From: Brevundimonas sp. A19_0
GTDB lineage: Bacteria > Pseudomonadota > Alphaproteobacteria > Caulobacterales > Caulobacteraceae
Assembly: GCF_017744255.1 (NCBI RefSeq)
Contig: NZ_JAGHQP010000004.1
Span: 20,010 to 52,009 of the forward strand
Length of the DNA: 32,000 nucleotides
Direction of reading: 5' to 3'
In this document: in pieces, positions 1 through 20,793 of the stretch
Position numbering within the stretch: position 1 is the stretch's first letter
How the letters are laid out: each line of letters starts with the position of its first letter
The notes under the pieces: model-generated
Seen by the model: the letters and a program-made list of their open reading frames with translations, nothing else
Databases searched by the model: none
Told to the model about the DNA's origin: nothing
Made by a program: the position numbers and the translations under genes

Positions 1-3000
1 GGGCATAGGTTCGGGTAGTCATGCCCGCCATCGGATAGTCGTAGGCGGGGTTGGAGCTCTCTCTGGAGATGATCTGGCCGGAAGGATTGGACGCAAATGA
101 CCAGGTCACGTCGTTTGTGGTTCCGGCCAGATTCAAGCTCATTGACCAGTTGCGGCTGTTGGGGACGTAAGCAAAATTGGTCGAGCCGCCGCCCTTCTGC
201 ACGACGAGATAGCGTCCCAGGGCGTCATAGGAATAGGCTGCGAACAAGCCGGTGCCGGAGGGGGACCCCGCATTGTCCCAAGCCAGGACCATGCGGTTGG
301 CGAGATCCCACTCATACTCCGCCGCCGCCCCGCCCGGCCAGGTCAGGCGGGTGCGTTGCCCCACCAGATCGTAGGCCGAGGTCAGGGTGCGACCGTAAGT
401 CGTCTCGGTGATCGGTCGGCCGAGGGCGTCCCAGGTCCAGACCACGCCATCCCCCGTCGTAGCGTTGGTGAACCGTGCCGACAGCCGGCGATCCAGATTG
501 TCGTAGGTGGTGAAGACGTCATTGGCCGTGCCGCTGCCGGGGACAGTCTTGACCGTCTCGCGGTTCAGGGCGTCGAAGGTGTAGGTGATCTCCTGACCGT
601 CGCGCAGACGGCGGGAGGTCAGATTGTCATTGGCGTCATAGCCGTACTCTTCATAATCCGTGGCGCTGGGCGCCTGAGAGCCGATTGTCGGGTTGGGAAA
701 GTACAGGCGGTAAACCCGGTCAAAGCCGTCATAGGCATAGTCGGAGCGATTGCCGTTGGCGTCCTCGACCCAGTCAATCTGGCCGTTCATCGTCCACGCC
801 TGCGTGCGGGTGGCCTGTTCCAGGGTGGGGTGGCCTACTGCACTTCGCACGACGGTGAGGCGGTCGGCCTCGTCATAGGTATTTTGGGTAATCCGGTCGC
901 CACCGAAGGCCCCGACCGAACCGCGCGTGCACGCCGAACCCGGCAAGCTGCCGTACTCGGCCGGGTTCATTCGTACTGCGGTGCAAAGCAAAAGGCCTTC
1001 ATCATCATAGGTATATTGAATCACGCTGATCGTGCCGCTGCCCAGAACCTGATCTTCGCGGGCCTTGCGGGCCTGGGCATCATACGCCGTCACGCTCTTG
1101 CTCAGCACCGTCATGGCGGCAAGAGCGGCATCGGATTGGGCCGTGGCGGAACCTTGCCGGACCTCGAGCGGCTGGCCGTCAGCGTTGTAGACGGTGCGCG
1201 TGGCCGGATAGGGCAGCGGCCCCGCGCCGTCGGGATCCGGCGCGATCGTGCCGGTTGGCCGGCGCATCACGTCGTAGGCGTACCAGGTGGTGTCGGCCGT
1301 GCCCGCCAGCGGGCCGTCGACGGTGCGGACATTGCCGACGGCGTCATAGGTCATGGTCGTGGTGGCCGAAAGCGTTCCCGCCCCATTGCGCGCCGTGGTC
1401 GAAACGGGCCGCAGATTGCTGCCGGTGGAGACATCGCCGACCTCGTAGGCCGTCGTGGTGACGACTTCATCGGCCGTGCCATTGCAACCTGGCGACGGGG
1501 CGGCGGTGGCACAGGCCGAGGTCTCGGTCTGAACCCAGACCGGCGTAGGGGCCTGCACGAACCCCGGTGTGCCGGCGACCTTGTACCAGGCGTACTGAGG
1601 GGTCCAGGTGAAGCGGGTCTGGGGCCGCGCCGCGCCCGATGTCGGAGCCGGACGGGTGGCTGTCAGAGGCAGGCCCGTGGTGGCGTCATAGGTGAAGTTG
1701 GTGACATTGCCCCGGGCATCCGTGATCGAATCCGGCTGTAGGCACAGCACGGCATTGACGCTGCAGTCCGGATAGTGGGCAGTCGACTCGCGCGGGCTGA
1801 GGCCCGAACCGGGCTTGGGCGTGGTGAGGATGCTTGTGACGGCGCCGTTCGGATTGCGACCGATTGTGACGCTGTTGCCTTCGGGGAGCTCGGCGAAGCG
1901 CAGGCCGCCACCACTCTGAAAGATGTCGGTCTGCTGGTTCATACCGTTCTTGATCCAGACCAGGGAGGGCGTGAACTGCTCTTCCTGGGTGGTCGGCGAC
2001 GTCCAGACCGTGTAGCCCAACCAGGCGATGTGGTACTCGCTCGTCTGGCTATTGGGGTCGGTGACCGTTGTACTGAGCTGATAGGAGCCCTGGGGCGGAC
2101 TGCATGGGGCGGGCGCAGGCGCACAGTAGGTCTCATAAGCGTAGGTCCAGGTCCCGCGTCCGTCGCTGGCCGAAGTGACGACGGTGCCGCGCCCCCGCAC
2201 GAAGCTGTAGCCGTAGGTGATGGAGTTGCCCGTTGTCTGGGTCGGGCGAGATACGCCCACCGGCAAGTCCAGACCGGGTGTCGTGCCGCTCAGAGTAATG
2301 CGGGTCGTCGCGTTGGTGGCGTCCGTCACGCGACGTTCGTTGCCCACGCTGGAGAAGGTCAGGCTGGGCCAGGACGTGCCGCCGGGGCAGGCGCCCCCCA
2401 CCGGACACACGGTGTTGTTGACCGCTGTTACGACCTGATCGCCGGAGGTATTGGTCGTGAACCTCAGCTCATAGCCCAGGTTGTTGCGGATCGAGCCCGT
2501 TTCGAAGGTGATGACTTCGCCATTTAGTCGCGTGATGGTCTGAACGGGTGTGCCCACAGGTGTCGGGCTGGCAGCGGGAAAGACCGCGACCGCGCCGTCG
2601 ACGGATACATAGGTGAAACTGCCGTCGGTTTCCTCGGTCAGCGCGCCGAAGCCGTCGATGAGCTCGAACGTCGGACCGTCGCACTCCTCCCTCTGGAACA
2701 CGTTGGAACTGCCCAGGTACACGACGGTGTAGAGGGCAAAGCAGCTGCTCTCCTTGTTGATCGTGCGGGAGAGGCTGGTCAATGTGCTGTAGCGCCAGGC
2801 TTCCTTCTGCGTGTCCCAGGTCGCCGAGAAGGATAGTCCGCCCGCTGCGGGATCGCCGATGCTGATGGCGGGAGATGAGATCTGCGCCGTGCCGCTGATC
2901 ACATCGACGCCGAGGGGGCCGACCTGTTCATAAACGGGAGGAGCCTCAAGAGTGGTCTGGGCCGAGGCGGGTAGGACCGCGACGCCAAGCGCTGCGGCAC

Positions 3001-3055
3001 CGGCCATAACTGCCAGCAGGAGGCGGCGGGCGTGAGACAGACCGAACATCTTCAT
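1..3055 (-). CDS. RHS / YD-repeat family protein, N-terminal ~1018 codons (3' end beyond the left edge)
   Basis: Absent from the ORF track because it has no in-window stop. My reverse-complement translation from ATG 3055..3053 gives MKMFGLSHARRLLLAVMAGAAALGVAVLPASAQTT, a Sec-type signal. The frame then stays open to the window edge and contains many YD units: YTYDDEGLL, YAYDGFDRV, YGYDANDNL, YTFDALNRE, TTYDNLDRR, WTWDALGRP, SAYDLVGQR, YSYDALGRY. The ATG overlaps the upstream gene's TGA (ATGA at 3052-3055). Confidence 0.85.
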   Translation of the reverse strand, partial: MKMFGLSHARRLLLAVMAGAAALGVAVLPASAQTTLEAPPVYEQVGPLGVDVISGTAQISSPAISIGDPAAGGLSFSATWDTQKEAWRYSTLTSLSRTINKESSCFALYTVVYLGSSNVFQREECDGPTFELIDGFGALTEETDGSFTYVSVDGAVAVFPAASPTPVGTPVQTITRLNGEVITFETGSIRNNLGYELRFTTNTSGDQVVTAVNNTVCPVGGACPGGTSWPSLTFSSVGNERRVTDATNATTRITLSGTTPGLDLPVGVSRPTQTTGNSITYGYSFVRGRGTVVTSASDGRGTWTYAYETYCAPAPAPCSPPQGSYQLSTTVTDPNSQTSEYHIAWLGYTVWTSPTTQEEQFTPSLVWIKNGMNQQTDIFQSGGGLRFAELPEGNSVTIGRNPNGAVTSILTTPKPGSGLSPRESTAHYPDCSVNAVLCLQPDSITDARGNVTNFTYDATTGLPLTATRPAPTSGAARPQTRFTWTPQYAWYKVAGTPGFVQAPTPVWVQTETSACATAAPSPGCNGTADEVVTTTAYEVGDVSTGSNLRPVSTTARNGAGTLSATTTMTYDAVGNVRTVDGPLAGTADTTWYAYDVMRRPTGTIAPDPDGAGPLPYPATRTVYNADGQPLEVRQGSATAQSDAALAAMTVLSKSVTAYDAQARKAREDQVLGSGTISVIQYTYDDEGLLLCTAVRMNPAEYGSLPGSACTRGSVGAFGGDRITQNTYDEADRLTVVRSAVGHPTLEQATRTQAWTMNGQIDWVEDANGNRSDYAYDGFDRVYRLYFPNPTIGSQAPSATDYEEYGYDANDNLTSRRLRDGQEITYTFDALNRETVKTVPGSGTANDVFTTYDNLDRRLSARFTNATTGDGVVWTWDALGRPITETTYGRTLTSAYDLVGQRTRLTWPGGAAAEYEWDLANRMVLAWDNAGSPSGTGLFAAYSYDALGRYLVVQKGGGSTNFAYVPNSRNWSMSLNLAGTTNDVTWSFASNPSGQIISRESSNPAYDYPMAGMTTRTYA

Positions 3056-3606
3056 CCTCCCGGGTTCCAGCCGACTGTCACGGTTCCGGTGTAGGCCACG
3101 GCCGCAGCGCCGTCGGTAACCTTGCAGCGCCAGTTGGCGAACTTGGGCGGGGTCGAGAGGGACCCTGTCCACTCAAAGGCTGTATTGGCCGAGGTAATGC
3201 TGGTCGGAACGATCAGTGCCGAGCCGCCCGTACGCTCCCAGAGATAGGTGTAGGGTGCTGTCCCGCCGCTGGCCGTGACGTAGGCCTGGGCCGACGGCCC
3301 ATATCCCGTGCCGGAGATCGAGGTCGGGGTAACCGATGCCGACAATGGAGGCGGAGGCGGAGGTGGGGGTGGTGGAGGAGTCGCTGCTGCCGCAACCTGG
3401 GTCCGGTTGCCCGCTGGGTCGTAGGTGTAGGTGATCGTGACGCCACTCGGATAGGCCGCAGAGATCAGACGGCCCAAATCGTCGTAGGTGTAAACCACGG
3501 GGTCCTTGGCGCTCGCGCGGCCGGCTCGACCGAAGGTGAGCAAGGCCAGCCCCGAGGCCAGAGACAGCAACGCAGTCCGACGTTCGTTTCGCAAGTTACC
3601 CCCCAT
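3052..3606 (-). CDS. Small secreted YD-repeat / poly-proline / Ig-like-domain protein, first gene of the RHS operon
   Basis: 184-aa ORF. It has an N-terminal signal-like segment (ALLSLASGLALLTFGRAGRASA) and one YD-repeat pair (VVYTYDDLGRLISAAYPSGVTITYTYDPAGNRTQV). A proline run follows, then a beta-rich C-terminal module with the motif GGTAPYTYLWE, which resembles PKD/Ig-type repeats. The stop overlaps the RHS start. Confidence 0.75.
   Translation of the reverse strand: MGGNLRNERRTALLSLASGLALLTFGRAGRASAKDPVVYTYDDLGRLISAAYPSGVTITYTYDPAGNRTQVAAAATPPPPPPPPPPPLSASVTPTSISGTGYGPSAQAYVTASGGTAPYTYLWERTGGSALIVPTSITSANTAFEWTGSLSTPPKFANWRCKVTDGAAAVAYTGTVTVGWNPGG
3346..3378 (-). repeat. CCN x11 tract encoding a poly-proline linker
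   Basis: The plus-strand run tgg agg cgg agg cgg agg tgg ggg tgg tgg agg reads as 11 consecutive Pro codons on the minus strand, in the frame of the 3052..3606 ORF. Confidence 0.9.
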
Positions 3607-4016: not shown

Positions 4017-4037
4017 GTCTTTCTCTCCCAAAGCTCC

Positions 4038-4072
4038 AATATATGAAGATCATATATTCGATAGTCGAATAT
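4038..4072. promoter_or_regulatory. Two overlapping perfect palindromes in an AT-rich divergent promoter region; likely operator(s) for the adjacent XRE regulator
   Basis: AATATATGA-aga-TCATATATT (4038-4058) has 9-bp arms. ATATTCGA-tag-TCGAATAT (4054-4072) has 8-bp arms. They sit between the divergently oriented lipoprotein gene (start 4016) and the XRE gene (start 4107). Confidence 0.55.
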
Positions 4073-4106
4073 AAGGGAAGAGCTGGTTTCGATTCAGGGC
4101 CAGCTT

Positions 4107-4364
4107 ATGCCGAAGACTGTCCATTCCGACGCCGGTGCGTCGGTGCTCCGCGTCCTCATTGAGGCGCGCAAGACGGCCGGAGTAACGCAGGCGGAACTAG
4201 CCCGGCGCGTGGGAAGTCAGCAGCCAGTGATTTCGCTCATTGAACGTGGGGTGCGGCGCGTGGATGTGGTGGAGTTCTACGTGCTTGCCCGGGCCATAGG
4301 GGCAGATCCGGTTGACCTCTTCCGGAAGGCCGGAAGCGGCATTCCACTCTCGCAGTCCCTGTAG
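4107..4364 (+). CDS. XRE/Cro-C1 family helix-turn-helix transcriptional regulator (85 aa)
   Basis: LRVLIEARKTAGVTQAELARRVGSQQPVISLIERGVRRVDVVEFYVLARAIGADP is the classic HTH_3 pattern (GxTQxELA...S.IE.G.R). Confidence 0.85.
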   Translation: MPKTVHSDAGASVLRVLIEARKTAGVTQAELARRVGSQQPVISLIERGVRRVDVVEFYVLARAIGADPVDLFRKAGSGIPLSQSL

Positions 4365-4443
4365 CTGTCAAAGTCCGTCTCGGCCTTCTGTCCCGCGCCT
4401 CTCGTCCGAGGCGGCGGGGCTCGAATATCGCCACGCCATCGGT

Positions 4444-5193
4444 GTGACGGAAGAGGCACTCGAAGAGGTGCTGGATGCCAATCGCGTGCGCTACTGCGGC
4501 ACACTTGACGACGTTATGGGCTTTGACCTCGCTCCGCCGATCGAAGCCGCGATGGCCGAAGGTCCGGAAGTGCGCACACCGCCGCAAAGGGAGGAGCGTC
4601 CGCGTGTCGCGTTGCCAGAAGAGCCGTCTGACGCCGTTGAGCCTCGTGTCTCCGCGCTGCGCCCTGCGCCGGAGCCGCGCGAGCTTGGAAAGGGTGGATC
4701 GCAGCATCGCTATGTCCAGCACCTGGTGAAGGGGCTAGCCGAAGAGCGGGGGTTCCGGGCTGTGATTGAGGAGGCCGTTGAAGGCGGTCAGGTCGACGTC
4801 GCTCTCTACCGAGACGACCTCTCGATTGCGTGCGAGATTTCCGTGACCTCGACCGCCCAATACGAAGCTCAAAACCTCGCCAAATGCGCCCAGGCGGGGT
4901 TCTCGCGCGTTCTCGCCATTGCGGCTGACGCGAAGCGCCTGAAAGCCATTGAAACCGCCGCCAGGGCCCGTCTGTCGGACGAGGAGATGGGCTGCATCGA
5001 CTTCCTCACGCCGGAGCACGTCGCCGCAGCGCTGGATGCCTTCGCGGCGCCAAGCGAGGAAGCGAGCGTGGTTCGCGGCTATCGGGTGAAGGTGTCCCGC
5101 ACCATCGTCGGTGCAGATGAGGCGAAGGACCGCAGAAGCGCCATCGCCCGGGTCATCGCTCAATCCATGCGCGGTCTTCCGCAGGACAAGTAG
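4444..5193 (+). CDS. Hypothetical protein with a PD-(D/E)xK (restriction-endonuclease-like) core motif; start uncertain
   Basis: The ORF is open from 4312, but its first ~44 codons look non-coding. In-frame candidates are GTG 4444 and ATG 4516. The core is GGSQHRYVQHLVKGLAEERGFRAVIEEAVEGGQVDVALYRDDLSIACEISVTSTAQYEAQNLAKC. The pattern E...D-V-(x)n-E-I-S...E..N..K resembles nuclease-fold proteins (Asp codon within 4792-4800, Glu 4834-4836). Codon usage is good throughout. Confidence 0.6.
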   Translation: MTEEALEEVLDANRVRYCGTLDDVMGFDLAPPIEAAMAEGPEVRTPPQREERPRVALPEEPSDAVEPRVSALRPAPEPRELGKGGSQHRYVQHLVKGLAEERGFRAVIEEAVEGGQVDVALYRDDLSIACEISVTSTAQYEAQNLAKCAQAGFSRVLAIAADAKRLKAIETAARARLSDEEMGCIDFLTPEHVAAALDAFAAPSEEASVVRGYRVKVSRTIVGADEAKDRRSAIARVIAQSMRGLPQDK

Positions 5194-5204
5194 CACTTCA
5201 TGAA

Positions 5205-6443
5205 GTGCCCCCGGGCCAAACCTTGGCCGAGGCGCACACTGCTGGGATGCCGAGCGACCCGGGGAAGGCAGTCTCATACTTCGGCAGAACCAACTTCCAT
5301 CGCCGCGGTCAGCGTTTCGGCATACGGCAGGCAGACCGGCTGTCGCATGTGTATGTGATCGGCAAGACCGGCGTCGGCAAATCTACGCTGCTTGAGGTGC
5401 TGGCGAGTCAGGACCTAGCGGCCGGACGCGGGTTCGCTCTCATCGACCCGCATGGCGACTTGGCCGAGCGTCTTCGCGATGCGGCGCAGCCGATCCTCGG
5501 CGGCCAGCTCAACTATCTGGACGCCGCCGATCCAAACCAACCCCTCGGCTATAATCCGCTTCGCCGGGTCCGGGACGACAAGATTCCGCTCGCAGTCTCT
5601 GGCTTCCTTGAGGCCCTCAAGAAGCTATGGCCGGACGCGTGGGGCGTACGCATGGAGCATGTGCTTCGCAACAGCCTTTACGCGCTCCTGGAGCGAGACG
5701 ACTCAACACTACCGGACATCCTCGGCCTCTATTCGGATGAGACATTTAGAAAGCAGGTGACCGGCAGGATCCGGAATGAGGTGGTGCGCCGATATTGGTC
5801 GCACGAGTTTGCCAAATATCCGGACCGCCTTCGGGTCGAAGCCTGCGCACCCATCCAGAACAAGCTCGGCGCTCTCTTGACCGATCCGCGCCTCTACCGT
5901 GTTCTGGTCGCTCCCGAGCGCCACATCCGGTTCCGCAAGATTATGGACGAGGGCGGGGCGCTGGTCGTGAACCTGGCCAAGGGACGGCTTGGCGAGGACG
6001 GCGCGGCGCTCCTGGGCGGCTTCATCGCCTCGACCATCGGGCTCGCGGGTCTGAGCCGCGCGGACGCGCCGGCCGCGGATCGCCGTCCCTTCTTTTTCTA
6101 CATCGACGAGTTCCAGAGCTTCACCACGCTCGCGTTCGTGAATATGCTCCCGGAACTGCGCAAATACGGCGTCGGTCTGACCCTCGCGCACCAGCACCTG
6201 AACCAGCTGGAGCCGGACATCCGCCACGCCGTGCTCGGGAACGTCGGCACCGTCATCTCATTCCGCGTCGGTGCCGAAGACGCTGCGGTAATGGCGAGAG
6301 AATTTCAGCCGACCTTCGATGTGCTTGACCTGATCGGCTTGGCCAACCGCGACATGTATCTGAAACTCATGATCGACGGCGCGCCGAGCCCGCCGTTCAG
6401 TGCTCGCTCCATCGATCCCGTTCTGCCAACTGCGAACGGTTGA
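5205..6443 (+). CDS. Soluble P-loop ATPase of the TraD/VirD4 coupling-protein / HerA-FtsK type (AAA_10 / TraG-D_C-like)
   Basis: Motifs seen: Walker A VIGKTGVGKST (~5361-5387); DPHGDL just downstream; GYNPL; Walker B RPFFFYIDEFQSF (~6090-6116); and a C-terminal LTLAHQHLNQL...GNVGTVISFRVG, as in T4CP C-terminal domains. No transmembrane N-terminus. Start is GTG 5205 or ATG 5247. Confidence 0.75.
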   Translation: MPPGQTLAEAHTAGMPSDPGKAVSYFGRTNFHRRGQRFGIRQADRLSHVYVIGKTGVGKSTLLEVLASQDLAAGRGFALIDPHGDLAERLRDAAQPILGGQLNYLDAADPNQPLGYNPLRRVRDDKIPLAVSGFLEALKKLWPDAWGVRMEHVLRNSLYALLERDDSTLPDILGLYSDETFRKQVTGRIRNEVVRRYWSHEFAKYPDRLRVEACAPIQNKLGALLTDPRLYRVLVAPERHIRFRKIMDEGGALVVNLAKGRLGEDGAALLGGFIASTIGLAGLSRADAPAADRRPFFFYIDEFQSFTTLAFVNMLPELRKYGVGLTLAHQHLNQLEPDIRHAVLGNVGTVISFRVGAEDAAVMAREFQPTFDVLDLIGLANRDMYLKLMIDGAPSPPFSARSIDPVLPTANG

Positions 6444-6595
6444 CCCGCTGTTGGTGCATCCGACTGATGTAGTGCGGTACGCCGCCGCATGCTGCAGGTT
6501 CTGGGGACGGGTCGACAGGTTGCCGATGGCGGTGACGGAGCCGCCCTACCGCCGAGCCACGAGACTTTAGCGGCCCCGGAGGAAGAGGTGGTCAA

Positions 6596-7306
6596 ATGAA
6601 GGTCGGGGCGGCTGACGATCTTGAGCATCGGTACATGGCGAAGTTTCGCCAGTTTGCGGCCAGCTACGGAACGTTCGTGGAGTACACTTCGGATCGGGCC
6701 GGTCGGGATATCGGTTTGCACTTGACGCAGCTCGCATCGTCCGGCGGAAAGGTCGTCACCCCGGCGTTGGTTTGGTTCCAGATGAAGGGCATTCCGGCGG
6801 CGAGGCTGCCGAGGGAGGCGTTCGACGCTGCCGAGGCGGTCACGCTATCGCTCCAAACTAACCATCTACGTTTCTGGTACATCGCACCGGAGCCGTCCTA
6901 CCTCGTCGTCTATGTGGAGAGTTCCGATCAGTTCCTGGTGTTCAATATCAAGACTTGGATTTCCGAAGAGTTGGGCGAAACGGTTCTCACCACGACCCAG
7001 CAGTCTTACTCGGTCTCGATCGACAAGAAGAACATCCTCGACGACCACGCCTTCGGAATCGTTCTGAGGAGAAACTTGGTGTCGGTCGTGCGCGAACGGC
7101 TGGGCGCTGCGGACGACGCCGAAGCTCGTCGGTTTCTCGCGGCGTCTGAGGTCGTTAAGTGGATGGATGCCTGCCGCCAGCAGGGCGTCTCGACGCGTAT
7201 CGCCGTGAAGGTATGGATCACGGAGACCCGAACAGAGGTCATCTTTCTAAGCAACCCGCCGGAGCTGACGACCGGATCCCCGCTCGCGTGCACTGGCAAT
7301 ACATGA
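6596..7306 (+). CDS. DUF4365-like (PD-(D/E)xK nuclease fold) domain protein, 236 aa
   Basis: A strong RBS (GGAGGAAGAGG) precedes ATG 6596. TSDRAGRDIGLHLTQL...GKVVTPALVWFQMKG matches my memory of the DUF4365 signature (D-x-G-x-D ... v-Q-x-K), at ~6692-6721 and ~6776-6790. It is followed by HLRFWYIAPEPSYLVVYV. The family call is from memory only. Confidence 0.5.
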   Translation: MKVGAADDLEHRYMAKFRQFAASYGTFVEYTSDRAGRDIGLHLTQLASSGGKVVTPALVWFQMKGIPAARLPREAFDAAEAVTLSLQTNHLRFWYIAPEPSYLVVYVESSDQFLVFNIKTWISEELGETVLTTTQQSYSVSIDKKNILDDHAFGIVLRRNLVSVVRERLGAADDAEARRFLAASEVVKWMDACRQQGVSTRIAVKVWITETRTEVIFLSNPPELTTGSPLACTGNT

Positions 7307-7695
7307 TGCCGCCGCTGGCGGAGACGTTCCCGTTCCTTTCCTTTTCGGGCGGCCGCCAAGCGCGGTTTGGGGAACGCATCACCATCGAAGAATACGATGG
7401 GGAGATCTACACCGAGCCCCACCGAGTCATCGAATGGCTCGACCGCAATGACGCGGACGAAATGGACGACGAGGAGCTCGAGGGCGAAGGCTGGCTCGCG
7501 CTTGGCGAGGACATCTATGCATACGGTGAGTTTGCCGGTGGCGAATGGGTCGAACACGAGTTCGACATCAGCCTGAACGAGCTCGGCGAAAACTGGCTCT
7601 CGACTTCGAAGGTGATGGAGGCGGCCGAAATCCTTGTAGTAGGGGAAGCGGAAGGCTGGGTGAGCGTCGCGCCCTGGCATGCGCGGGACCTCTAG
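7303..7695 (+). CDS. Highly acidic 130-aa protein, translationally coupled to the DUF4365-like gene
   Basis: ATGATG at 7303 overlaps the upstream TGA (7304-7306). My count gives 23 Glu + 9 Asp versus 6 Arg + 1 Lys in 130 aa. Third codon positions are mostly G/C in this frame. The antisense 224-aa ORF (7006..7680) looks like a shadow ORF. Confidence 0.65.
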   Translation: MMPPLAETFPFLSFSGGRQARFGERITIEEYDGEIYTEPHRVIEWLDRNDADEMDDEELEGEGWLALGEDIYAYGEFAGGEWVEHEFDISLNELGENWLSTSKVMEAAEILVVGEAEGWVSVAPWHARDL

Positions 7696-7699
7696 CCGG

Positions 7700-9010
7700 C
7701 TAGGCCTGCGCCGCCTCTTCGTCCTCGTTATCGGCCAGAAGGTCTAGCTTGCCCCAAATCTCCAGGAACGGCGCAAGCGTCATAATCTGTCCCTCATCGT
7801 GCTCAGTCGGTCCAAGTGCCTTGACCTTGTGCCGCCTTATCCGTTGGCGGGTGATCTTGGCCTGAAGGCTGAACATCTCGCCATCTGCATTCGCCGCGAA
7901 CATCACCAGCGCTTCGCCGCGGCGTTGAGCCTCGGCGGCGAAGCCGCTTTCTGGGAGGTCCTCTCGTCGCGCAGTCCAGGCTTCGGAAATGAATGTCACG
8001 CCGTTCGCACCGATCTGGCGTGCCCTCGCCGCGGCGTCGCGCATCATCATGTATTTCGCGCGCCGATCGGTGGACCAAGCCTGGATTTGGTCTACGGGGA
8101 GCAGGTCCTTCCATAGGAGCATAATGGGCATGTGGTAGCCGTCTCGCAGCATGACGCGGCGAGCCTCGGCGAAGAACACCTCCGCCATCTCTCTGAAACT
8201 TCGCGCATCCTTGAGTCCCGCCCAAGCATCCTTGACGTAACGCTTCCGGGCGAGCCGCGTCACCTTTGCAGATGGTTGTCCTCTCGGAATTCGGCCGATC
8301 TCCATCTCACGGCCGGTGCTCACCGCTACGTAGATGGTGCGCTCTGCCTCCAAGACCTCCATGGACTTCAGACGTCCGTCGGGGAGAGTATCAAGCAGGA
8401 GATGCTCGCCCTTGTCGGGGCCTCCGCGGGGGATATCGGCGCCGATGTGCCGATGAAGCTCGACGACCATTTGCGCCAACTGGCCGTAGACGTGAGCAAG
8501 GGCGTCGAGGATCTCGTGATCAGGTAGCTCCGCGTCGACCCAACGACGCTGCACGCACAGGACGCCGTGCTTGAGGACGTGCTCATCCAAAAGATGGGCG
8601 GGAATAGTGCGGCGAATGTCCCCCAAGGACGCGAAAACGTTCGCCGGAGTCCAGGCTGTGTGCGGGTGCCCCGCGTAGCTCGCCACCAGTTCAACCTTGA
8701 CTTGGCTGAGTGTGGCCAGATCGCCTTGCTTCTCGATCTTATTTCGAGCGTTGACCGCCCATCTCATGATCGGATCGGACTTGAATCTCGATTGAACGCC
8801 TTCGTACCAAGCCTTGAACTCGGGAATCGCCGCCTTGTTGCTTTGCAGGATGAAGGTGACGGTGCGCGCGGTAGCGATCGTGGACTGCAAGCCCAAGCGG
8901 AATTTGTCAGGCTCGAAATAGGCGCTTCGCGTCTGGTGCCAGAGCTGGCGCAGATCTCCCAGACGCCGGAGGACAGCACCGACCGCGTTTGAAACTTCGT
9001 CGACTTCCAT
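7700..9010 (-). CDS. Hypothetical protein, 436 aa, no motif I can assign; directly downstream of and co-oriented with qatD
   Basis: Long ORF with normal amino-acid composition. I saw no P-loop, no TM segment and no recognisable catalytic motif. A 59-bp gap separates it from the qatD stop, with only a weak 6-bp hairpin (GCGCTC..GAGCGC) and no T-tract. Confidence 0.7.
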   Translation of the reverse strand: MEVDEVSNAVGAVLRRLGDLRQLWHQTRSAYFEPDKFRLGLQSTIATARTVTFILQSNKAAIPEFKAWYEGVQSRFKSDPIMRWAVNARNKIEKQGDLATLSQVKVELVASYAGHPHTAWTPANVFASLGDIRRTIPAHLLDEHVLKHGVLCVQRRWVDAELPDHEILDALAHVYGQLAQMVVELHRHIGADIPRGGPDKGEHLLLDTLPDGRLKSMEVLEAERTIYVAVSTGREMEIGRIPRGQPSAKVTRLARKRYVKDAWAGLKDARSFREMAEVFFAEARRVMLRDGYHMPIMLLWKDLLPVDQIQAWSTDRRAKYMMMRDAAARARQIGANGVTFISEAWTARREDLPESGFAAEAQRRGEALVMFAANADGEMFSLQAKITRQRIRRHKVKALGPTEHDEGQIMTLAPFLEIWGKLDLLADNEDEEAAQA

Positions 9011-9069
9011 GGCGGCTTCTATTGCCTCGGGCGCTCAATGCGCTTGGAGCGCGGCACAGTTTGACCCTG

Positions 9070-9810
9070 TTAGACTACTGGAACCGAACCCAACAACGAG
9101 CGGAGGTTTGCATGCAGTTGGGCGGGCACGGCCTCTTCAGTCATGCGCCAGACCTCAGCTAGTGTGACGTATGTGAGAGAAACGTCCCACGGCATCAAAG
9201 GGCGTCCGTTCACCTGCGCAAACGGCGCGTCAGTTTCGGTAAGGACGCGTTCGGCTGGCATGGCCTGAGCCAGCTGCTTGCCCTTTGCAGAGTTCAACAT
9301 CGAGGGGCCGACGCTGAACCAGCAGCCGAGCTTCACCGCCCGAGCAAGCTCCCGCTCGGTGCCGCTGAACCAGTGCAGAACTGGCGTTCCTGCAGCCGGG
9401 AATTCCTCGATCAAGTCCAAGACTGGTGTAGCCGCACGCCTAGAGTGGAAACTCATGATCCGACCACCAGCATCCGCGCAACCGCGCAACATGCGCTTCA
9501 GAATCCGCTTCTGAATGTCGAAGCTGCCTCGGTGTTGCGGACTACCGTCGAGACCGATTTCACCGACATACCTCGCTTCGGGCAGGAAGTGTTCCCACAG
9601 TGGTATTTCGGTGTGGCGTTCAGCTACCAGTTCGGGGTGAAGCCCGAGGCCTACCCGCACACGCCTCAGGTTGCGGACCAGCTTCTGATTTCCCGCCCAC
9701 GCCTTGGGCGTTGTGGTGACCGCTAAAACGTAAACGCCTTTTGCCTCGGCTTCCGCCAAAACAGCGGCGGGATCGGCATAAAGATCGATGTGGCAGTGGA
9801 AATCGATCAA
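9070..9810 (-). CDS. qatD: QatD, TatD-family metal-dependent DNase/hydrolase
   Basis: Motifs IDFHCHIDL (HxH), VGEIGLDG, SFHSR and LTETDAPF are TatD hallmarks. The apparent start is TTG at 9810, overlapping the qatC stop (9807-9809). Confidence 0.85.
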   Translation of the reverse strand: MIDFHCHIDLYADPAAVLAEAEAKGVYVLAVTTTPKAWAGNQKLVRNLRRVRVGLGLHPELVAERHTEIPLWEHFLPEARYVGEIGLDGSPQHRGSFDIQKRILKRMLRGCADAGGRIMSFHSRRAATPVLDLIEEFPAAGTPVLHWFSGTERELARAVKLGCWFSVGPSMLNSAKGKQLAQAMPAERVLTETDAPFAQVNGRPLMPWDVSLTYVTLAEVWRMTEEAVPAQLHANLRSLLGSVPVV

Positions 9811-11081
9811 ATCACACCATGCGCCTTCAACAAGGTTTCAAGTTCCGCAAGGCCCCGCAGCGCCGTGTCCTCTAAATCGGTCGTTGGGCCTAATTGTGCC
9901 GAGTTCAGAGAACCTCCGATCCATGCGTTACGCCCGCGCGAATCTGCAAGATGGACGGCGTAGGCAGCCGACCGGACGTCATCGAAGTCCATGTGTTTTC
10001 GGCCCGGTAGACCGAGGTTATCGTACTTGTAGCTGGGCGTGGAATCCGTAACACCCCATCTCAGGAAGGACGCGCGCCGAACAAGGCAGGGCACGCATCG
10101 ACCGCATTGGGTGAATCCGGTTCTGGCGTAGCGGCCGCAGCTGGTCGTACCGCCAATCAGAGATTTGAGGAGCGTTTGATTGGCGCATCCCGCCAGCATC
10201 TCGCCTTTGGTCTTCAGCTGGTAGGGGTTCTGGAGCTGTACGTTGAGACCGGCAGCGGTCAGGACGCTTTGCAGCTTTCCGAGATAGAATGGGTGCGTCG
10301 TTCTCGTGCTTAGGGAACCGACACGCATAGGCGTGAGCGGGATGTTAAGGCTGATGAAGCCGTTTTCTGGCACGATGAGGTCGATGGTCGCACCTTTGGC
10401 GTAGGCCTCTAGGCAGGTCGCCGAGAGCACACCTAATCCGAAGAAAACCATCGACCTGGCGCGCTGCGAACGCTCCGACTGGATCGGGGGCGATGCGTTG
10501 TGATTGAGCTGGATGTGCAGAGACTGTGGAGAGATCGTCCGTGCGAATCGACTCTGATCTTTCTTGTCACCCTTAGCGACTTGGCTGACGAGCAGGGGCT
10601 TATGCCCTTGCGCGACCAGATCGATCGCTCCGATCAGGCTGTCCATACCTCCGGACAAGAGGCAGACGATGTCTTCGGTTCGATGCTGGACGGGGATAGG
10701 TGGTGCCGGAAGATAGCCGCCCCCGAAGAATGCCACCTTCCAGATGTCGCCCGTGACGAACTGGAGCATTTGCTCAAGTTCTGGCGCGACTCCATTCCAG
10801 AAGGCAGGATCGACGACAGCCACAGTCAAGTCGATTTGGCGCGTCCAGCCATCGGGGCTGGTGCTGCGGGTGCAGGACTCGTCCGCAGCTACGACGGATA
10901 GGGCAAAGGAAAGAAAGTCCCAGGCCCTTGCCGATGGCTGAAGCTTTAGGCCGCGAAAATAGGGTGGGATGGCCGCGCCAATAGCGCCTTCATTGGGCGT
11001 GTTTTTATAACCGTAGAGAATGAACGGAATGTCAGTGCTCGTGGGAAATGCCGTCCCGGCAGGTGCGCAGCTGACCCTCAT
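9807..11081 (-). CDS. qatC: QatC, QueC-like PP-loop ATPase
   Basis: It has the PP-loop VCLLSGGMDSLIGAIDL, the motif KTKGEM, and the C-terminal Cys cluster CGRYARTGFTQCGRCVPCLVRR, as in QueC Zn sites. The ATG at 11081 overlaps the qatB TGA (TGATG). GTG 11084 is also possible. Confidence 0.85.
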   Translation of the reverse strand: MRVSCAPAGTAFPTSTDIPFILYGYKNTPNEGAIGAAIPPYFRGLKLQPSARAWDFLSFALSVVAADESCTRSTSPDGWTRQIDLTVAVVDPAFWNGVAPELEQMLQFVTGDIWKVAFFGGGYLPAPPIPVQHRTEDIVCLLSGGMDSLIGAIDLVAQGHKPLLVSQVAKGDKKDQSRFARTISPQSLHIQLNHNASPPIQSERSQRARSMVFFGLGVLSATCLEAYAKGATIDLIVPENGFISLNIPLTPMRVGSLSTRTTHPFYLGKLQSVLTAAGLNVQLQNPYQLKTKGEMLAGCANQTLLKSLIGGTTSCGRYARTGFTQCGRCVPCLVRRASFLRWGVTDSTPSYKYDNLGLPGRKHMDFDDVRSAAYAVHLADSRGRNAWIGGSLNSAQLGPTTDLEDTALRGLAELETLLKAHGVI

Positions 11082-11875
11082 CACAGGTAGCTCTCAAAGA
11101 TTTCGAAGGTGTCGCGAATGATGTCATTCGCCAACTCGCTGGCGACTTGGCGATTCATGGTTTGCCCGACGTTCGCCCTGGCCCGAAAGGCGCGCGCCAC
11201 CTCTTGGCGGACGTAGCTCTTCATCTCTTCCAGCCGGTCAACGCCCTGAGCATAGTTCGGTGCCTTGTCGAGAATCGCCTGCCCGACATCGAACTCGATC
11301 CGCTGCGCAAGATCGCCGGCGATGTAGGACTCGATCACCAGATCGATTTCCGGCGGCGTTAGCGCCGCCAGGTCGGCGTTCGGGTTATGAGCAAGCACTT
11401 CCGAAAGCGCCCTGGAAACGGAGTCGCGCGCGCCCTCTGTGTCTTGTGTCCCGTCGACGGGCCGAAGCGCCTCGACGATGATGTCGGCAATCTCCTTTTG
11501 GGTGCGACCCGCCAAGCTTGCCGGATTAAGAGTGACGTCGGTCGGCAGCGGAGCGCCCGTGCTCAGCGCATCCAAGACTCCATAGAGACCGCCCGCTGTC
11601 CGGGCCGTCCCCGCCATGCGTTGGGCGGCCGACGCAGCGCCACCGAGTCCCTTGCGGGAGTAGTGGCCAAGCCCGCGGCGAAGGTCTCGCGGCCCCCCAG
11701 ACCGGCCATACCGGCCGAGGCTTGTCCGCGCCGGCCTAAAGCGGCCAGCGGGCGCGACGGCGGGGGGATTTGCTCCCGCCGCAGGCGAGGGCTGCTGTCC
11801 CGGCGCAGAGGGAACCCATTCAGGGACCAAGGGGATGCCCGAGCCCGGGCCCTTGCTTGATGCCGAAGTCCCCAT
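11081..11875 (-). CDS. qatB: QatB (assigned by position in the Qat operon); disordered G/P/A/S-rich N-terminal third and helical acidic C-terminus
   Basis: It lies between the KAP ATPase and the QueC-like gene. The ATG at 11875 overlaps the qatA TGA by 1 nt (TGATG). The protein starts MGTSASSKGPGSGIPLVPEW. The track's upstream extension (to 11986) overlaps qatA and is Cys/Gly-rich junk. Confidence 0.7.
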   Translation of the reverse strand: MGTSASSKGPGSGIPLVPEWVPSAPGQQPSPAAGANPPAVAPAGRFRPARTSLGRYGRSGGPRDLRRGLGHYSRKGLGGAASAAQRMAGTARTAGGLYGVLDALSTGAPLPTDVTLNPASLAGRTQKEIADIIVEALRPVDGTQDTEGARDSVSRALSEVLAHNPNADLAALTPPEIDLVIESYIAGDLAQRIEFDVGQAILDKAPNYAQGVDRLEEMKSYVRQEVARAFRARANVGQTMNRQVASELANDIIRDTFEIFESYL

Positions 11876-13755
11876 CAGTGCCTCTCGTTTCCAGCGGCTT
11901 TCTTGCTGGCCGCAGCAATCGCCTTCTTCACCGGTTCCGAAACATTCGGCTCCTTCACCCAACCGGCCAGCACATCGACAGCCCAAGGCTTATCAGCCAG
12001 CAACGGCACAATCGGAGCCGTTATCTGCGCCGGGGGAAGATCACCCATGAAGCGTGCAACGGTTTGGATGTGAGCGCCTGGCACGGCGGCGACGGTGAGC
12101 AGTGCATTGAGAATCTGAGGCGTACCCCACTGCTCAACAGCTCGCGCCCGACTGAGGACCCGCTCCGCAATGCGACTGACTTCGTTCAAAGGCAGTGCAT
12201 GCAGCTTCTGAACCAATGTCGAACTCGGCGTTGTGCTCAGCTTGAGTAGCGCTTCAAGTAGGTTCGCACCTTCGGACGACAATTTGTCCGCTGCCGTTAT
12301 GATCGGCATGCGCTCCCGGCTGACGTAGACGATGCCGCGAAGATCTTGTTCGCCAAGGGGCGGCTCTAGCGCCAACCAATCGCGCACGAACTCGTCGTCC
12401 CACTCGCCCTCAAGGACAAGACTGGCCGGGTCTTTCGCGGCCATCTCTTCGAGCGGCACGAGCAAGCTTGCCTTGCCGTCTTCGCTCTCGTTGATGGTCC
12501 GAAGAATCTCGGCATAGGCCGCTTCCGATCCGCACCGCTCGAACAGCAGCATTTTGGCTAGAGCGGTCTCGTCCACATTGACCTGTTGGACACGGGCGAT
12601 GGCTTTGCGGATCGATAGTGTGTTGAGCAGGCGCTTAATGAGGCGAGGGTTGCCCGCAATCTTGTTCGATGTGGTCAGGATGGGGGCGATGCGATCCGCA
12701 AGGTCCAACTGAAGACCCAAGTCGAGCGGGACCTCTTTGATCAGAGATTCCACATAGGCGCGATCGACTCGCTTACCCGACCAGGTTTCTCCCAACCGCT
12801 TGCAGATCGCCGCCCGAGCGGAATCCTGCTCCTCCTTTTTGAGGCTGCTATTCTCGATAAATAGCATCATCAAATAGGCGCGCACGTCCTGTGTACCCAG
12901 CGGGGGGACGCGGATGGGGACCTGGATCAGTTTGTCGAAATAGTTCGTAACGAGATCGTCTGTGAGCCTAGCGTCTTTGAAGTGATCTACTACCGCGCGT
13001 TTGATCATTTCGTCGTCGGCCGCGATCACGAATGCCGTGTGGTCGAGGAAAAGGAAGAGGCGCATTGCCTCCAAGGTCGCGATCGCTGTCGGCGGCAGAC
13101 AGCGGTCGAGGTCGTCAATCAATACGACCAAGGTGACGCCTAGGTCCTTCAGTGTCTTTTCGAGTTCGTCTCGGAAATCCTGGATTTCTTTCGGGGGGGT
13201 TTGATCGGCCGCGCCGCTCTCTTTCAGGAAGCCCTTTGCATCGCCCGCTAGTTTGGCCGCTGCGTCCAAGTCCGTTTCAGTAACTTGCCCATCCGTCAGG
13301 TCTCTATAGACAGCGATCCCGTCGCCGATGAGTCCGACTGGAGGCAGGCCGACCGCTAATGCCGCGACAGTTTTCGCACTGGCGCTCGCCAGTCGAAGCC
13401 AGTTGACACGCTTCAGGAGGTTTTGGGCGTGCCACACCACATTGTCGCCGAGGTCCTTGCTCTCCTCCGCCTTTTTCAGAACGGCCCGAGCGATGACCTC
13501 CATCAGCGCAGCGCGAGTATCGTCGTAGCCCTGATAGAGCCAAGCGTTGAACTCGACGAATAGATAATCCTCGGCAGTCCGAGACTTAAGCGACTGAGCC
13601 AGAAGCTTCATCATCGACGACTTGCCGACGCCCCAGCTCCCAGAAATCCCCATCGAAATGGGCTTCCCGTTGGCCTGCAGTATCATCTCCGCCGCGATGT
13701 CCGCGACAAAGCCGAAATTTAGGAAATCTTGGTCGGTCTCGTTATCGGACCACAT
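11875..13755 (-). CDS. qatA: QatA, KAP-family P-loop NTPase
   Basis: Walker A is ISGSWGVGKSSMMKLL. Walker B is TLVVLIDDLDRCLP, the KAP signature. MWSDNETDQDFLNFGF is a typical KAP N-terminus. GGGGGAG lies ~10 nt upstream of ATG 13755; the track start 13791 is less likely. Confidence 0.85.
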   Translation of the reverse strand: MWSDNETDQDFLNFGFVADIAAEMILQANGKPISMGISGSWGVGKSSMMKLLAQSLKSRTAEDYLFVEFNAWLYQGYDDTRAALMEVIARAVLKKAEESKDLGDNVVWHAQNLLKRVNWLRLASASAKTVAALAVGLPPVGLIGDGIAVYRDLTDGQVTETDLDAAAKLAGDAKGFLKESGAADQTPPKEIQDFRDELEKTLKDLGVTLVVLIDDLDRCLPPTAIATLEAMRLFLFLDHTAFVIAADDEMIKRAVVDHFKDARLTDDLVTNYFDKLIQVPIRVPPLGTQDVRAYLMMLFIENSSLKKEEQDSARAAICKRLGETWSGKRVDRAYVESLIKEVPLDLGLQLDLADRIAPILTTSNKIAGNPRLIKRLLNTLSIRKAIARVQQVNVDETALAKMLLFERCGSEAAYAEILRTINESEDGKASLLVPLEEMAAKDPASLVLEGEWDDEFVRDWLALEPPLGEQDLRGIVYVSRERMPIITAADKLSSEGANLLEALLKLSTTPSSTLVQKLHALPLNEVSRIAERVLSRARAVEQWGTPQILNALLTVAAVPGAHIQTVARFMGDLPPAQITAPIVPLLADKPWAVDVLAGWVKEPNVSEPVKKAIAAASKKAAGNERH

Positions 13756-13817
13756 TTGTTGTTTGCTCCCCCGAACAGCCCACTCTCCCATTAGTTGCGG
13801 CAGGCCTCAAGTACCAA

Positions 13818-14072
13818 CTACTGAGTGGCGCAGAGGTCATCGCGGTTGAGGAATGCCTCCACTGCAGCCAGGCGGCATCCGGTGGGTAGATGTACGTCTC
13901 GCTCCCACCACATCCATGTTTTGGCGTCCACGCCGACCAAGGCCGCAGCATCCTTCTGACGAAGGCCCAGCTTCTGCCGGCGAACCCGAAGGCATTCCCC
14001 AAGTGTTGGGTTCTTGGAAAGCGTCGTATCAGGCCGAGCAGCCCTGAGGGCGCAGCTCAGGCCCGGTAGCAA
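13818..14072 (-). CDS. XRE-type helix-turn-helix regulator upstream of qatA; start uncertain (TTG 14072 or TTG 14132)
   Basis: TLGECLRVRRQKLGLRQKDAAALVGVDAKTWMWWERDVHLP is an HTH_3-like pattern. It is on the same strand as qatA and 62 nt upstream of it. There is no ATG or GTG between 14072 and the HTH. Confidence 0.65.
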   Translation of the reverse strand: MLPGLSCALRAARPDTTLSKNPTLGECLRVRRQKLGLRQKDAAALVGVDAKTWMWWERDVHLPTGCRLAAVEAFLNRDDLCATQ

Positions 14073-14085
14073 AAGGGCAACACCG

Positions 14086-14619
14086 CCATGCCGTTGCGGC
14101 CTAGGCGGGGCGGGCAAGGGGGCCTGCGGCAAGGCCCCGCGCTGCCAGAGGGACTATCAGAACCGCATCTCCGGCCCGCTGTTCGACCGCATCGACCTGA
14201 CGGTCGAGGTGCCGCCGGTGACCGCCGCCGACATGAGTCTGCCGCCTCCGACCGAGGGCACCGCCGAGGCGGCCGCCCGCGTCACCCGCGCCCGCGAGAT
14301 CCAGACCGCCCGTCTGGACGAGGCCGGCCATGAGGGCGAGCCCGTCATCAACGCCCATCTGGCCGGGGCCCTGCTGGACCGGTTCGCCCAGCCCGATGCC
14401 GACGGACGGGCCCTGCTGATGCGGGCGGGCGAGGCCGGGGGTCTGACGGCGCGCGGCTGGACCCGGACCCTGCGGCTGGCGCGAACCATCGCCGATCTCG
14501 ATGGCTCGACCGGCATCCTGCGCCGCCATGTGGCCGAGGCCCTGATCTATCGCCACACCCGGATGGACGCCGAGATGCAGTTCAACCGGGCGACCGCAGG
14601 TGCCCACGCCCCGGTTTGA
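14086..14619 (+). pseudogene. comM: 3' fragment (C-terminal ~175 codons) of a comM/yifB Mg-chelatase-like AAA ATPase, separated from its 5' part
   Basis: PCRCGLGGAGKGACGKAPRCQRDYQNRISGPLFDRIDLTVEVPPV...GLTARGWTRTLRLARTIADLDG...ILRRHVAEALIYR is the conserved ComM/YifB Zn-ribbon and C-terminal domain. The ~330-aa ATPase part that should precede it is replaced by minus-strand island genes. Confidence 0.8.
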
Positions 14620-14653
14620 GCGGGTGTTAAGAGGTCGGCGCTAGTCTGGCGCC

Positions 14654-19947: not shown

Positions 19948-20793
19948 TTACAGGGCCAGCGTCCCTGTCCCCTCCAGCTCGACCGGCCCGGTCATGAAGA
20001 CGTGGCCGCTGTCGGCGTCCCAGCGGATGTCGAGGTCGCCTCCGTCCAGCGTCAGGGTGGCGGTCCGTCCGGTCAGGCCGCGCCGGTGGGCGGCTACCAG
20101 GGCGGCACAGGCCCCGGTGCCACAGGCCTGCGTCAGGCCCGCCCCGCGCTCCCAGACCCTGAGGCGGATGTGATCCGGGGCCAGTACATGGGCAAAGCCG
20201 ACGTTCACGCCTTCCGGAAACAGCGGATGATGTTCGATCAGCGAGCCGGCCCCACGCACAAAGGCGTCGTCCTGCCGGTCGGTAAAGAAGACCACATGCG
20301 GATTGCCCATCGACACCGCCCCGGGTGTGTGGATCACCGGCGCGTCGACCGGCCCGATCTGCAGCTCAATGCCGCGCGTGTCCATCTCCTCGGCCAGCGG
20401 GATCTGCTGCCACGCCAGCCGCGGTTCGCCCATGTCGATCTCGATGCGGTGGTCGCCGGCCCGCCGCGCCACGGTCGCCCCGCCCAGGGTGCCGATCACC
20501 GCCCGGCCCTGCTCCGAGGCCTCCAACAGCAGCCAGCCGACGCAGCGCAGGGCATTGCCGCAGGTCTCGACCTTGCCGCCGTCGGCATTCCAGACCCGCA
20601 TGAAGGCGGTCTGACCCGCCTCTGCCGGCGGCTCGATGACGATCAGCTGGTCACAGCCCGGGCCGGTGGCCGGATCGGACAGGCGCCGCACCGTATCGGC
20701 ATCGAGATCGAAGCCCGGCGCATCGGCGCGCAGGACGATGAAGGCGTTTCCCGCCCCGTTCATCTTCAGATACGGCATTCCGCGCGCGCTCAT
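19948..20793 (-). CDS. dapF: Diaminopimelate epimerase
   Basis: YLKMNGAGNAF is present, and the catalytic Cys motifs are ETCGNALRC and QACGTGACA. Start is ATG 20793 or 20778 (MPYLKMNG). The track's longer N-terminus is unlikely. Confidence 0.9.
   Translation of the reverse strand: MSARGMPYLKMNGAGNAFIVLRADAPGFDLDADTVRRLSDPATGPGCDQLIVIEPPAEAGQTAFMRVWNADGGKVETCGNALRCVGWLLLEASEQGRAVIGTLGGATVARRAGDHRIEIDMGEPRLAWQQIPLAEEMDTRGIELQIGPVDAPVIHTPGAVSMGNPHVVFFTDRQDDAFVRGAGSLIEHHPLFPEGVNVGFAHVLAPDHIRLRVWERGAGLTQACGTGACAALVAAHRRGLTGRTATLTLDGGDLDIRWDADSGHVFMTGPVELEGTGTLAL

Follow-up and report, generated by a model that had tools for sequence, protein, structure and literature searches.

Does the stretch of 32,000 nucleotides (nt) from Brevundimonas sp. 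A19_0 analysed here (NZ_JAGHQP010000004.1, positions 20,010 to 52,009, hereafter the window) carry a native module of regulator, nuclease and translocase, or are three neighbouring open reading frames (ORFs) the remains of a different arrangement? The ORFs are co-oriented and closely spaced, and all motif strings quoted for them in the original prediction, which had treated them as an XRE-regulated three-gene module and perhaps a new defence system, were recovered in their translations. Two proteins encoded in the window are 100% identical to NCBI entries for A19_0. The following features were located:

4035-4073: AT-rich overlapping inverted repeats TCCAATATATGA/TCATATATTCGA and TATATTCGA/TCGAATATA, upstream of the XRE gene
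4107-4364, + strand: ORF for an XRE-family helix-turn-helix regulator of 85 amino acids (aa) (Pfam HTH_3, 2.4e-9)
4312/4444-5193, + strand: middle ORF, extent of the open reading frame (ORF listing)
5205-6443, + strand: ATPase ORF, open from GTG 5205, likely start ATG 5247

Comparison with related loci indicates that the trio is almost certainly the scar of a ~6.5-kb deletion, composed of an unrelated XRE gene, the remnant of a long gene (LARGE) and an intact gene for a small ATPase (SMALL). The reading that joins a deletion scar in an operon of a comM-integrated island to a role of the intact operon in DNA processing or mobilisation is given a probability of roughly 55%.

The comparison set comprised 80 related loci from species-representative genomes. 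The middle protein was found to match the last stretch (~250 residues) of an ~890-930-aa ORF adjoining the small ATPase gene. The full-length product consists of a ~250-aa N-terminal domain without a Pfam match, a second TrwB/DUF87-like ATPase that is 27% identical to SMALL, a Pro/Glu-rich disordered linker and a C-terminal PD-(D/E)xK domain. The intact operon of the relatives reads c16 (~127 aa), LARGE (~890 aa), SMALL (~400 aa), so that the ~250-aa protein, originally taken for a gene of its own, corresponds to codons ~625-890 of a gene of ~890 aa. The ancestral gene order in the close Brevundimonas relatives is as follows:

Genes 1-4: RHS (- strand), small RHS (- strand), 217 aa (- strand), XRE of 85 aa (+ strand)
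Genes 5-9: 269 aa (- strand), 237 aa, phosphoribosyltransferase (PRTase), HAD, isochorismatase
Genes 10-12: c16 (127 aa), LARGE (890 aa), SMALL (403 aa)
Genes 13-15: cargo, comM 3' fragment, HisKA-response regulator

The XRE orthologues of loci L089-L091 are thus located 4.6 kb upstream of LARGE, with six genes in between. Alignment of the window to L089 at the DNA level (blastn) yielded three syntenic blocks:

Window 4025-4367: L089 2352-2694, 86% identity
Window 4445-6409: L089 9197-11163, 81% identity
Window 14061-16045: L089 19224-21212, 82% identity

Approximately 6.5 kb of L089 (2695-9196) have no counterpart in the window, where ~20-80 nt are present instead. In tblastn searches, LARGE residues 625-890 (from L001) aligned to window positions 4384-5187 with 80.6% aa identity, and no counterpart of residues 1-624 was found anywhere in the window. 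In the close relatives LARGE invariably has c16 in front of it; a hidden Markov model (HMM) of c16 detected a copy before LARGE in 20 loci and gave no match in the window. The features of the junction and of the remnant are:

~4368-4384: deletion junction, with the XRE stop codon just to the left and LARGE homology resuming at ~codon 625 (blastn, tblastn, local alignments)
4384-5193, + strand: 3' remnant of the ~890-aa LARGE gene, codons ~625-890 (tblastn, synteny)
To ~4689, + strand: Pro/Glu-rich linker of the remnant
~4690-5043, + strand: PD-(D/E)xK core of the remnant
~5056-5172, + strand: C-terminal β-hairpin plus helix of the remnant
4768-4770, 4795-4797, 4834-4836, 4864-4866, 4882-4884: conserved residues E109, D118, E131, E141 and K147 of the remnant, respectively

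The window retains the last 30% of LARGE, having lost the other 70% together with c16. The deletion joined the end of the XRE gene to LARGE codon ~625 and removed c16, the LARGE N-terminal domain and the LARGE ATPase; rather than forming one regulated module, the three genes were juxtaposed by this event, which truncated the nuclease from its ATPase fusion. The adjacency of XRE gene, short nuclease ORF and ATPase gene was seen only in A19_0 among the loci examined. For the remnant, the start-codon candidates GTG 4444, GTG 4468 and ATG 4516 were noted, none of them verified, and neither an obvious start codon nor a ribosome-binding site is apparent.

A family of small stand-alone nucleases, as suggested by the first homologues retrieved (all ≤431 aa), was ruled out by an exhaustive search for representatives of the nuclease domain. 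This search returned 1465 clusters, and in every one of the 150 listed the domain is C-terminal. Of the 135 newly listed representatives, 51 are full-length (766-1153 aa), and all 51 have the ATPase upstream of the nuclease domain; the shorter representatives, from ~370 aa upwards, are regarded as cut gene calls because ATPase fragments are present in them. The split LARGE gene of L081 (617 + 257 aa) was also rejected as a natural stand-alone nuclease gene, the break being a scaffold gap of Ns. The short copy in L083 is due to an IS240 insertion, and the remaining short copies are fragments or contig-cut gene calls. The best representative match to the nuclease region, P0194 (511 aa), is 65% identical over its residues 261-509; its N-terminal 260 aa show no detectable match to the LARGE ATPase, and it may be a rearranged or fused derivative.

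Neither c16 nor the LARGE N-terminal domain, nor the backbone proteins c4 and c6, had any match in Pfam, NCBIfam or PHROGs. A second variable slot is located just upstream of c16, where the gene sets of L085-L088 (2919-6826) and L089-L091 (4203-6854) differ. One set comprises an ATP-grasp protein, Vut_1 (queuosine-precursor transporter family) and GTP cyclohydrolase I, the other PRTase, HAD hydrolase and isochorismatase, and the slot possibly holds cargo for nucleotide or DNA modification. In L001, ~900 bp carrying a minus-strand XRE-like gene are inserted between LARGE and SMALL (6867-7967) and flanked by a direct duplication of ~100 bp, window positions 5074-5174 matching both 6867-6967 and 7867-7967.

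The 85-aa XRE repressor and the palindromes upstream of it, both noticed in the original prediction, were borne out by the HTH_3 match and the inverted repeats, which look like operators. Since the block at 4025-4367 is 86% identical to its L089 counterpart, the repeats belong with the XRE gene and not with the genes downstream. Neither a sigma-70-like promoter nor an intrinsic terminator could be detected between 3900 and 6700. Judged by the gene order of the relatives, the XRE gene is natively unlinked to the ATPase genes. To its left, a gene for an RHS/YD-repeat toxin of at least 1056 aa runs off the window start (1-3606, - strand), and a small RHS_repeat/SprB protein is encoded at 3052-3606 (- strand); the same pair also flanks the XRE gene in L089-L091 and L082.

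The middle ORF had no match in Pfam (even at E ≤1), NCBIfam, PHROGs or PADLOC. An AlphaFold2 (AF2) model built on a 44-sequence alignment reached a mean predicted local distance difference test score (pLDDT) of 83.5, with residues 83-200 above 94 and arranged in the α-βββ-α-β topology of the restriction-endonuclease core (helix 83-101, strands 105-112, 115-123 and 126-133, helix 138-150, strand 155-160). In Foldseek searches of the PDB with the middle ORF, every significant match was a PD-(D/E)xK nuclease; the matches included AF1548, EcoT38I, Bax1, the R2 endonuclease domain, BspD6I, Can2 and Cap4. E109, E131, E141 and K147 are invariant in the alignment and D118 is kept in ≥90% of the sequences, D118 and E131 mapping to the second and third strands of the model. 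The restriction-endonuclease fold proposed for this protein from its sequence is therefore supported by structure prediction, and with both the core fold and the predicted catalytic residues present in the model, the product can confidently be assigned to the PD-(D/E)xK superfamily.

The third gene is preserved in full:

5247-6443, + strand: SMALL, soluble P-loop ATPase of 398 aa resembling type IV coupling proteins, intact
5361-5387, + strand: Walker A motif GKTGVGKST of SMALL
6105-6110, + strand: Walker B aspartate-glutamate of YIDEF of SMALL

The spacing of 12 nt given previously holds only if translation starts at GTG 5205; homologue N-termini favour ATG 5247, which leaves a gap of 53 nt after the middle ORF. 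SMALL scored 33.6 bits against Pfam TrwB_AAD_bind (gathering score 20.5) and was marginally above the gathering score of DUF87. Its NCBIfam scores were all far under the curated cut-offs (SXT_TraD, 50.3 against 366; TOL TraD, 40.6 against 648), the best matches of both SMALL and the LARGE ATPase being TraD, CedD and VirB4, all DNA-transfer ATPases. No transmembrane segment was detected in SMALL: the maximal 19-residue Kyte-Doolittle mean of 1.57 is reached at residue 266, inside the core, and nothing was found N-terminally. The AF2 model (pLDDT 69) is good for residues 50-290 and poor for the C-terminal 90 residues, and places helices 110-220 between Walker A and Walker B. The top 18 Foldseek matches were TrwB and DotL chains (5.8e-5 to 2.3e-4), with best values of 5.8e-5 for TrwB and 7.3e-5 for DotL; HerA (2.3e-4), Cagβ (5e-4, range to 7e-3) and VirB4 (1.4e-3) were also retrieved, and the defence SIR2-HerA and DUF4297-HerA complexes reached 0.013 or higher. 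Because of this ranking, SMALL is predicted to be a soluble ATPase of coupling-protein-like type, not a HerA of the kind found in defence systems; its earlier description as coupling-protein/HerA-like and without a membrane anchor agrees with the TrwB-like structure, the two Pfam matches and the lack of a transmembrane segment. SMALL has ~8000 homologues; identity is ~70% from one alphaproteobacterial family to another and ~60% in Flavobacteriaceae and Planctomycetota, and the gene evolves at ω ≈ 0.1.

Longer SMALL homologues (530-750 aa, 45% identical) occur in a strongly conserved cluster in L049-L080, from Patescibacteria and 'Gammaproteobacteria' metagenome-assembled genomes. There, a membrane protein with two transmembrane segments is encoded directly upstream, alongside a SecD/SecF-like pair and a sigma-like protein. 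This cluster resembles a housekeeping DNA- or protein-translocation system in bacteria of the candidate phyla radiation (CPR), whose membrane anchor is possibly supplied in trans.

What the intact operon does was approached through the genes that accompany it. Neighbours within 8 kb of SMALL were counted in 57 non-CPR loci. A large serine recombinase is present in 35 of them (within 600 bp in 16), ArdC in 14, a tyrosine integrase in eight, a Replic_Relax protein in nine and nuclease-bearing LARGE in 11; three further conserved backbone genes are found in 16-20 of the 57. A copy of SMALL on a Sulfitobacter plasmid adjoins a recombinase and DUF3768, and a low-GC metagenomic contig carries the same set in the form of integrase, SMALL, RadC, ArdC, XRE, LARGE, DUF4365 and serine recombinase. 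The same backbones also contain genes for a ParB-like protein and for a putative replication protein with a P-loop. In phage and plasmid collections, distant homologues alone were found (≤44% identity, the phage ones 25-27%), with no context of a type IV secretion system (T4SS).

In six loci (L002, L030, L031, L051, L066 and L075), LARGE lacks the C-terminal nuclease domain and is followed by a Replic_Relax gene (PF13814, 1.7e-19). This gene stands directly after LARGE in five of the six, usually within a few nucleotides, and one gene further in L051; it is absent in all 11 loci with a nuclease-bearing LARGE. PF13814 is the MOB_C relaxase family, and class-8 integrative and mobilisable elements (IMEs) of streptococci bring together a MOB_C relaxase, a VirD4 coupling protein and a serine integrase (PMC5357655). 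MOB_C relaxases are characterised, in the passage of PMC6736028 that cites Francia et al. 2013, as PD-(D/E)xK-like with a D-E-E metal site. Within the operon, nuclease domain and MOB_C relaxase stand in for each other, an equivalence of position and fold level only. In L002, from an uncultured Brevundimonas, SMALL is 85% identical to that of the window and lacks a nuclease-bearing LARGE on its upstream side, the alignment to the window beginning only at 5156; a pair of LARGE without nuclease and Replic_Relax gene lies 60 bp downstream on the opposite strand (9294-11955, - strand). This arrangement demonstrates a replacement of modules within one genus.

The operon is embedded in a genomic island, of which the window contains the following parts:

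6410-14060: variable cargo slot, without DNA homology to L089 or L085 although both flanks align
6596-7306, + strand: DUF4365 protein (4.8e-6), no PADLOC match
7700-9010, - strand: 436-aa protein (phrog_19262, 2.8e-40), no PADLOC match
9070-13791, - strand: QatD/C/B/A, a complete QatABCD system (PADLOC, 1e-35 to 1e-152)
14014-14619, + strand: 3' fragment of comM/yifB, Mg-chelatase-like (Mg_chelatase positions 155-206/207; Mg_chelatase_C, 3.2e-26)

The comM fragment encodes the C-terminal third of ComM alone. At ~14000 the GC content rises from ~0.59 to ~0.70, and from 14061 onward the window is conserved with L085 and L089. On these sequence features, the fragment is the right-hand integration boundary of the island. 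As only the C-terminal part of ComM is encoded, the left 14 kb of the window are assigned to a comM-integrated island whose other end and recombinase are located outside the window. The same slot is occupied by an OLD/GajA-like ATPase plus CBASS (CD-NTase and Cap15) in L085-L088 and by another gene set in L089-L091. Because the cargo changes while the operon keeps its place, the operon is considered a fixed backbone element beside variable cargo. The DUF4365 and 436-aa proteins may constitute an unrecognised cargo system. An unrelated contig of low GC content also has a DUF4365 gene close to the operon (L092, 14269-14949).

Taken by itself, the proposal that intact c16-LARGE-SMALL is a DNA-processing or translocation module of the island backbone, with a function in mobilisation, has close to an even chance of being correct. 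That the genes might mobilise the island had been offered earlier as an alternative to defence, and it is now favoured by the comparative evidence, with the serine recombinase, ArdC, DUF3768 and the MOB_C-type relaxase tracking the ATPase while the cargo changes. In the proposed mechanism, the PD-(D/E)xK domain would introduce cuts or nicks into the DNA of the element in the fashion of a MOB_C relaxase, two hexameric-type coupling-protein-like ATPases would engage and pump this DNA, and transfer would probably hitch-hike on the pore of a helper conjugative element, which is invoked because no T4SS is encoded nearby. The module in the window would be crippled, and no more than SMALL, perhaps along with a free-standing nuclease fragment, would remain active.

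By analogy, the operon is proposed to work like a pair of coupling protein and relaxase, yet to stand outside both the VirD4/TraD family and MOB_C by sequence. SMALL shares with the coupling proteins (TrwB/VirD4/TraD, DotL, Cagβ) a P-loop nucleotide-binding domain in which a long helical insertion separates Walker A from Walker B, and these proteins provided its best structural and family matches as detailed above; it differs in lacking an N-terminal membrane anchor and in scoring far under the TraD/VirD4 cut-offs (50 against 366 bits). The operon differs further in having two paralogous ATPase copies, one fused to a nuclease, and in its surroundings, in which T4SS genes were not seen nearby and a MOB_C-type gene is present in nine of the 57 loci. 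The class-8 streptococcal IMEs (PMC5357655) combine the same three functions in a compact element, namely a serine recombinase, a coupling-protein-like ATPase and a PD-(D/E)xK-type nuclease; the islands described here are alphaproteobacterial comM islands, not elements of Firmicutes, and possess an extra small ATPase and c16. Relative to the MOB_C relaxases, the nuclease domain is fused to a coupling-protein-like ATPase and replaced in six loci by a genuine Replic_Relax gene, and it has neither detectable Replic_Relax sequence similarity nor a Pfam match.

A further parallel is TdtA of Thermus ICETh1, which reportedly, in work of Blesa and colleagues from 2017, is a HerA/FtsK-type ATPase encoded on an integrative element beside nuclease genes and was suggested to expel DNA from the cell with no classical T4SS involved. 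It belongs to a different phylum and gene set.

Several observations weigh against a mobilisation role or against the view of the window copy as a dead scar. Both ATPases lack the membrane anchor of true coupling proteins. The VirB4, T4SS and HUH-relaxase families are not among the 25 most frequent of 83 Pfam families (47 large neighbouring proteins); the embedding in conjugation clusters that was named earlier as the finding to be expected of a transfer function is thus seen in part, with a relaxase-type gene in nine of 57 loci and no T4SS genes found. Within the window itself, the earlier statement that relaxase and T4SS genes are missing holds for the region examined, the ORFs of 14-32 kb not all having been scanned. 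Homology of the nuclease domain to Replic_Relax at the sequence level was rejected, hhalign against seven Replic_Relax proteins giving a probability of 3.5%. Most loci have SMALL without LARGE within 8 kb, so that the two need not act together. The operons of Flavobacteriaceae and Pirellulaceae are flanked by Pycsar, ThiF/DUF2971, STAND NTPase and WYL genes, as a defence system would be, and the combination of ATPase and nuclease is a common logic of defence. Finally, tests of the remnant for decay by dN/dS and lineage-specific substitutions gave no signal: its ω is 0.06-0.09 against three relatives, and it has accumulated three lineage-specific substitutions compared with 3-9 in the intact genes. 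Either the deletion happened recently or the fragment has kept a use, the lack of decay giving no date for the event; an undecayed remnant could still be expressed and of use to the cell.

The main alternative is that intact c16-LARGE-SMALL is an undescribed anti-phage or anti-plasmid system, whose translocases would be loaded onto foreign DNA for cleavage by the fused PD-(D/E)xK domain, the window holding a broken copy or a minimal surviving pair. The operon borders defence genes in every lineage examined, lying in or beside Qat, CBASS with the OLD-like ATPase or, in other phyla, Pycsar, STAND NTPase and WYL genes, and the predicted catalytic residues are conserved and under purifying selection. 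The PADLOC matches point the same way less clearly: HerA matches of SMALL (2e-5) span just ~50 residues, a DndH match is weak as well, and the single notable match is mad8 (2.2e-14). Membership in MADS, an eight-gene operon with methylase, kinase and specificity subunit, was rejected, as mad8 alone matches and no other mad genes are adjacent. The MADS HMMs derive from HHpred/PDB alignments and are thus generic (10.1101/2023.03.30.534895). The profile searches called for in the original prediction thus gave Pfam hits for XRE and ATPase, and neither a match for the middle ORF nor a specific PADLOC system. Qat was correctly placed next door, and the trio was rejected as a part of it: QatA-D are all accounted for at 9070-13791, the trio lies outside, and the slot holds other systems in relatives.

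The known pairs of HerA and nuclease (HerA-NurA, SIR2-HerA, DUF4297-HerA) resemble the operon in combining a hexameric FtsK/HerA-superfamily ATPase with a nuclease, and share the marginal DUF87 match; they differ in that the defence HerA structures rank lower (E ≥0.013 against 6e-5), and no SIR2, DUF4297 or NurA partner is adjacent to SMALL. Against defence also count the degree of conservation of SMALL across families and phyla, which is unusual for an immune gene, its occurrence mostly without LARGE yet with recombinase, ArdC and other backbone genes, the exchange of the nuclease domain for a MOB_C relaxase gene, structural neighbours that are coupling proteins and not defence HerAs, and the lack of matches to any PADLOC family or candidate family except the generic mad8. 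A role of the intact operon in defence is thus considered unlikely.

A less probable explanation, which we regard as rather improbable, is that the operon serves the maintenance of the island and not its transfer, either by resolving or segregating the excised circle or by terminase-like packaging into a helper capsid or a gene transfer agent. Weak PHROG matches to phrog_2666, a large terminase, and to phrog_5156, a phage family of 824 aa without an assigned function, the ParB-like gene and replication protein of the same backbones and the absence of a nearby T4SS would fit this proposal, but the terminase matches are limited to the P-loop, the phage homologues are just 25-27% identical, and the positional swap with a MOB_C relaxase speaks for conjugative processing. 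Very improbable is the idea that XRE, 250-aa nuclease and ATPase form, as they stand, a native XRE-regulated nuclease-translocase module: the co-oriented, close packing, an intact remnant ORF with all conserved catalytic residues and no excess substitutions, and a conceivable read-through from the XRE promoter, for which no terminator was found, are opposed by an adjacency unique to A19_0 among the loci examined, a distance of 4.6 kb between XRE and LARGE in relatives, LARGE homology that starts 20 nt past the XRE stop codon in mid-protein, the lack of obvious translation signals for the remnant and the origin of short copies elsewhere in IS truncation (L083), an assembly gap (L081) or contig-cut gene calls.

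The reading as a deletion scar in an operon for DNA processing or mobilisation bears on how this locus should be handled. Cloning of 4030-6450 as a 'system', as had been suggested, would test a deletion artefact, the proper unit being the intact operon from a relative. If it is true that the operon is a mobilisation or defence machine, the window copy would be a natural loss-of-function allele. A search of the literature on TrwB_AAD_bind, DUF8128, comM islands and MOB_C did not yield a description of the operon; as far as the searchable literature goes, the family is undescribed and the A19_0 copy crippled. At 50% identity the family forms at least ~1000 clusters of proteins, spread over Alphaproteobacteria, Bacteroidota and Planctomycetota. 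Tentatively, it may represent an unrecognised mobilisation machine that moves recombinase-bearing defence islands, many of them in comM, without a T4SS of their own, or else a new anti-plasmid or anti-phage system. The proposed machine would consist of an anchorless coupling-protein-like ATPase fused to a PD-(D/E)xK 'relaxase', assisted by a second, paralogous ATPase. To our knowledge, the movement of defence islands is largely unexplained, and an operon of this kind beside an exchangeable defence slot would offer a specific candidate, open to experimental test, for the machinery that moves a widespread family of islands.

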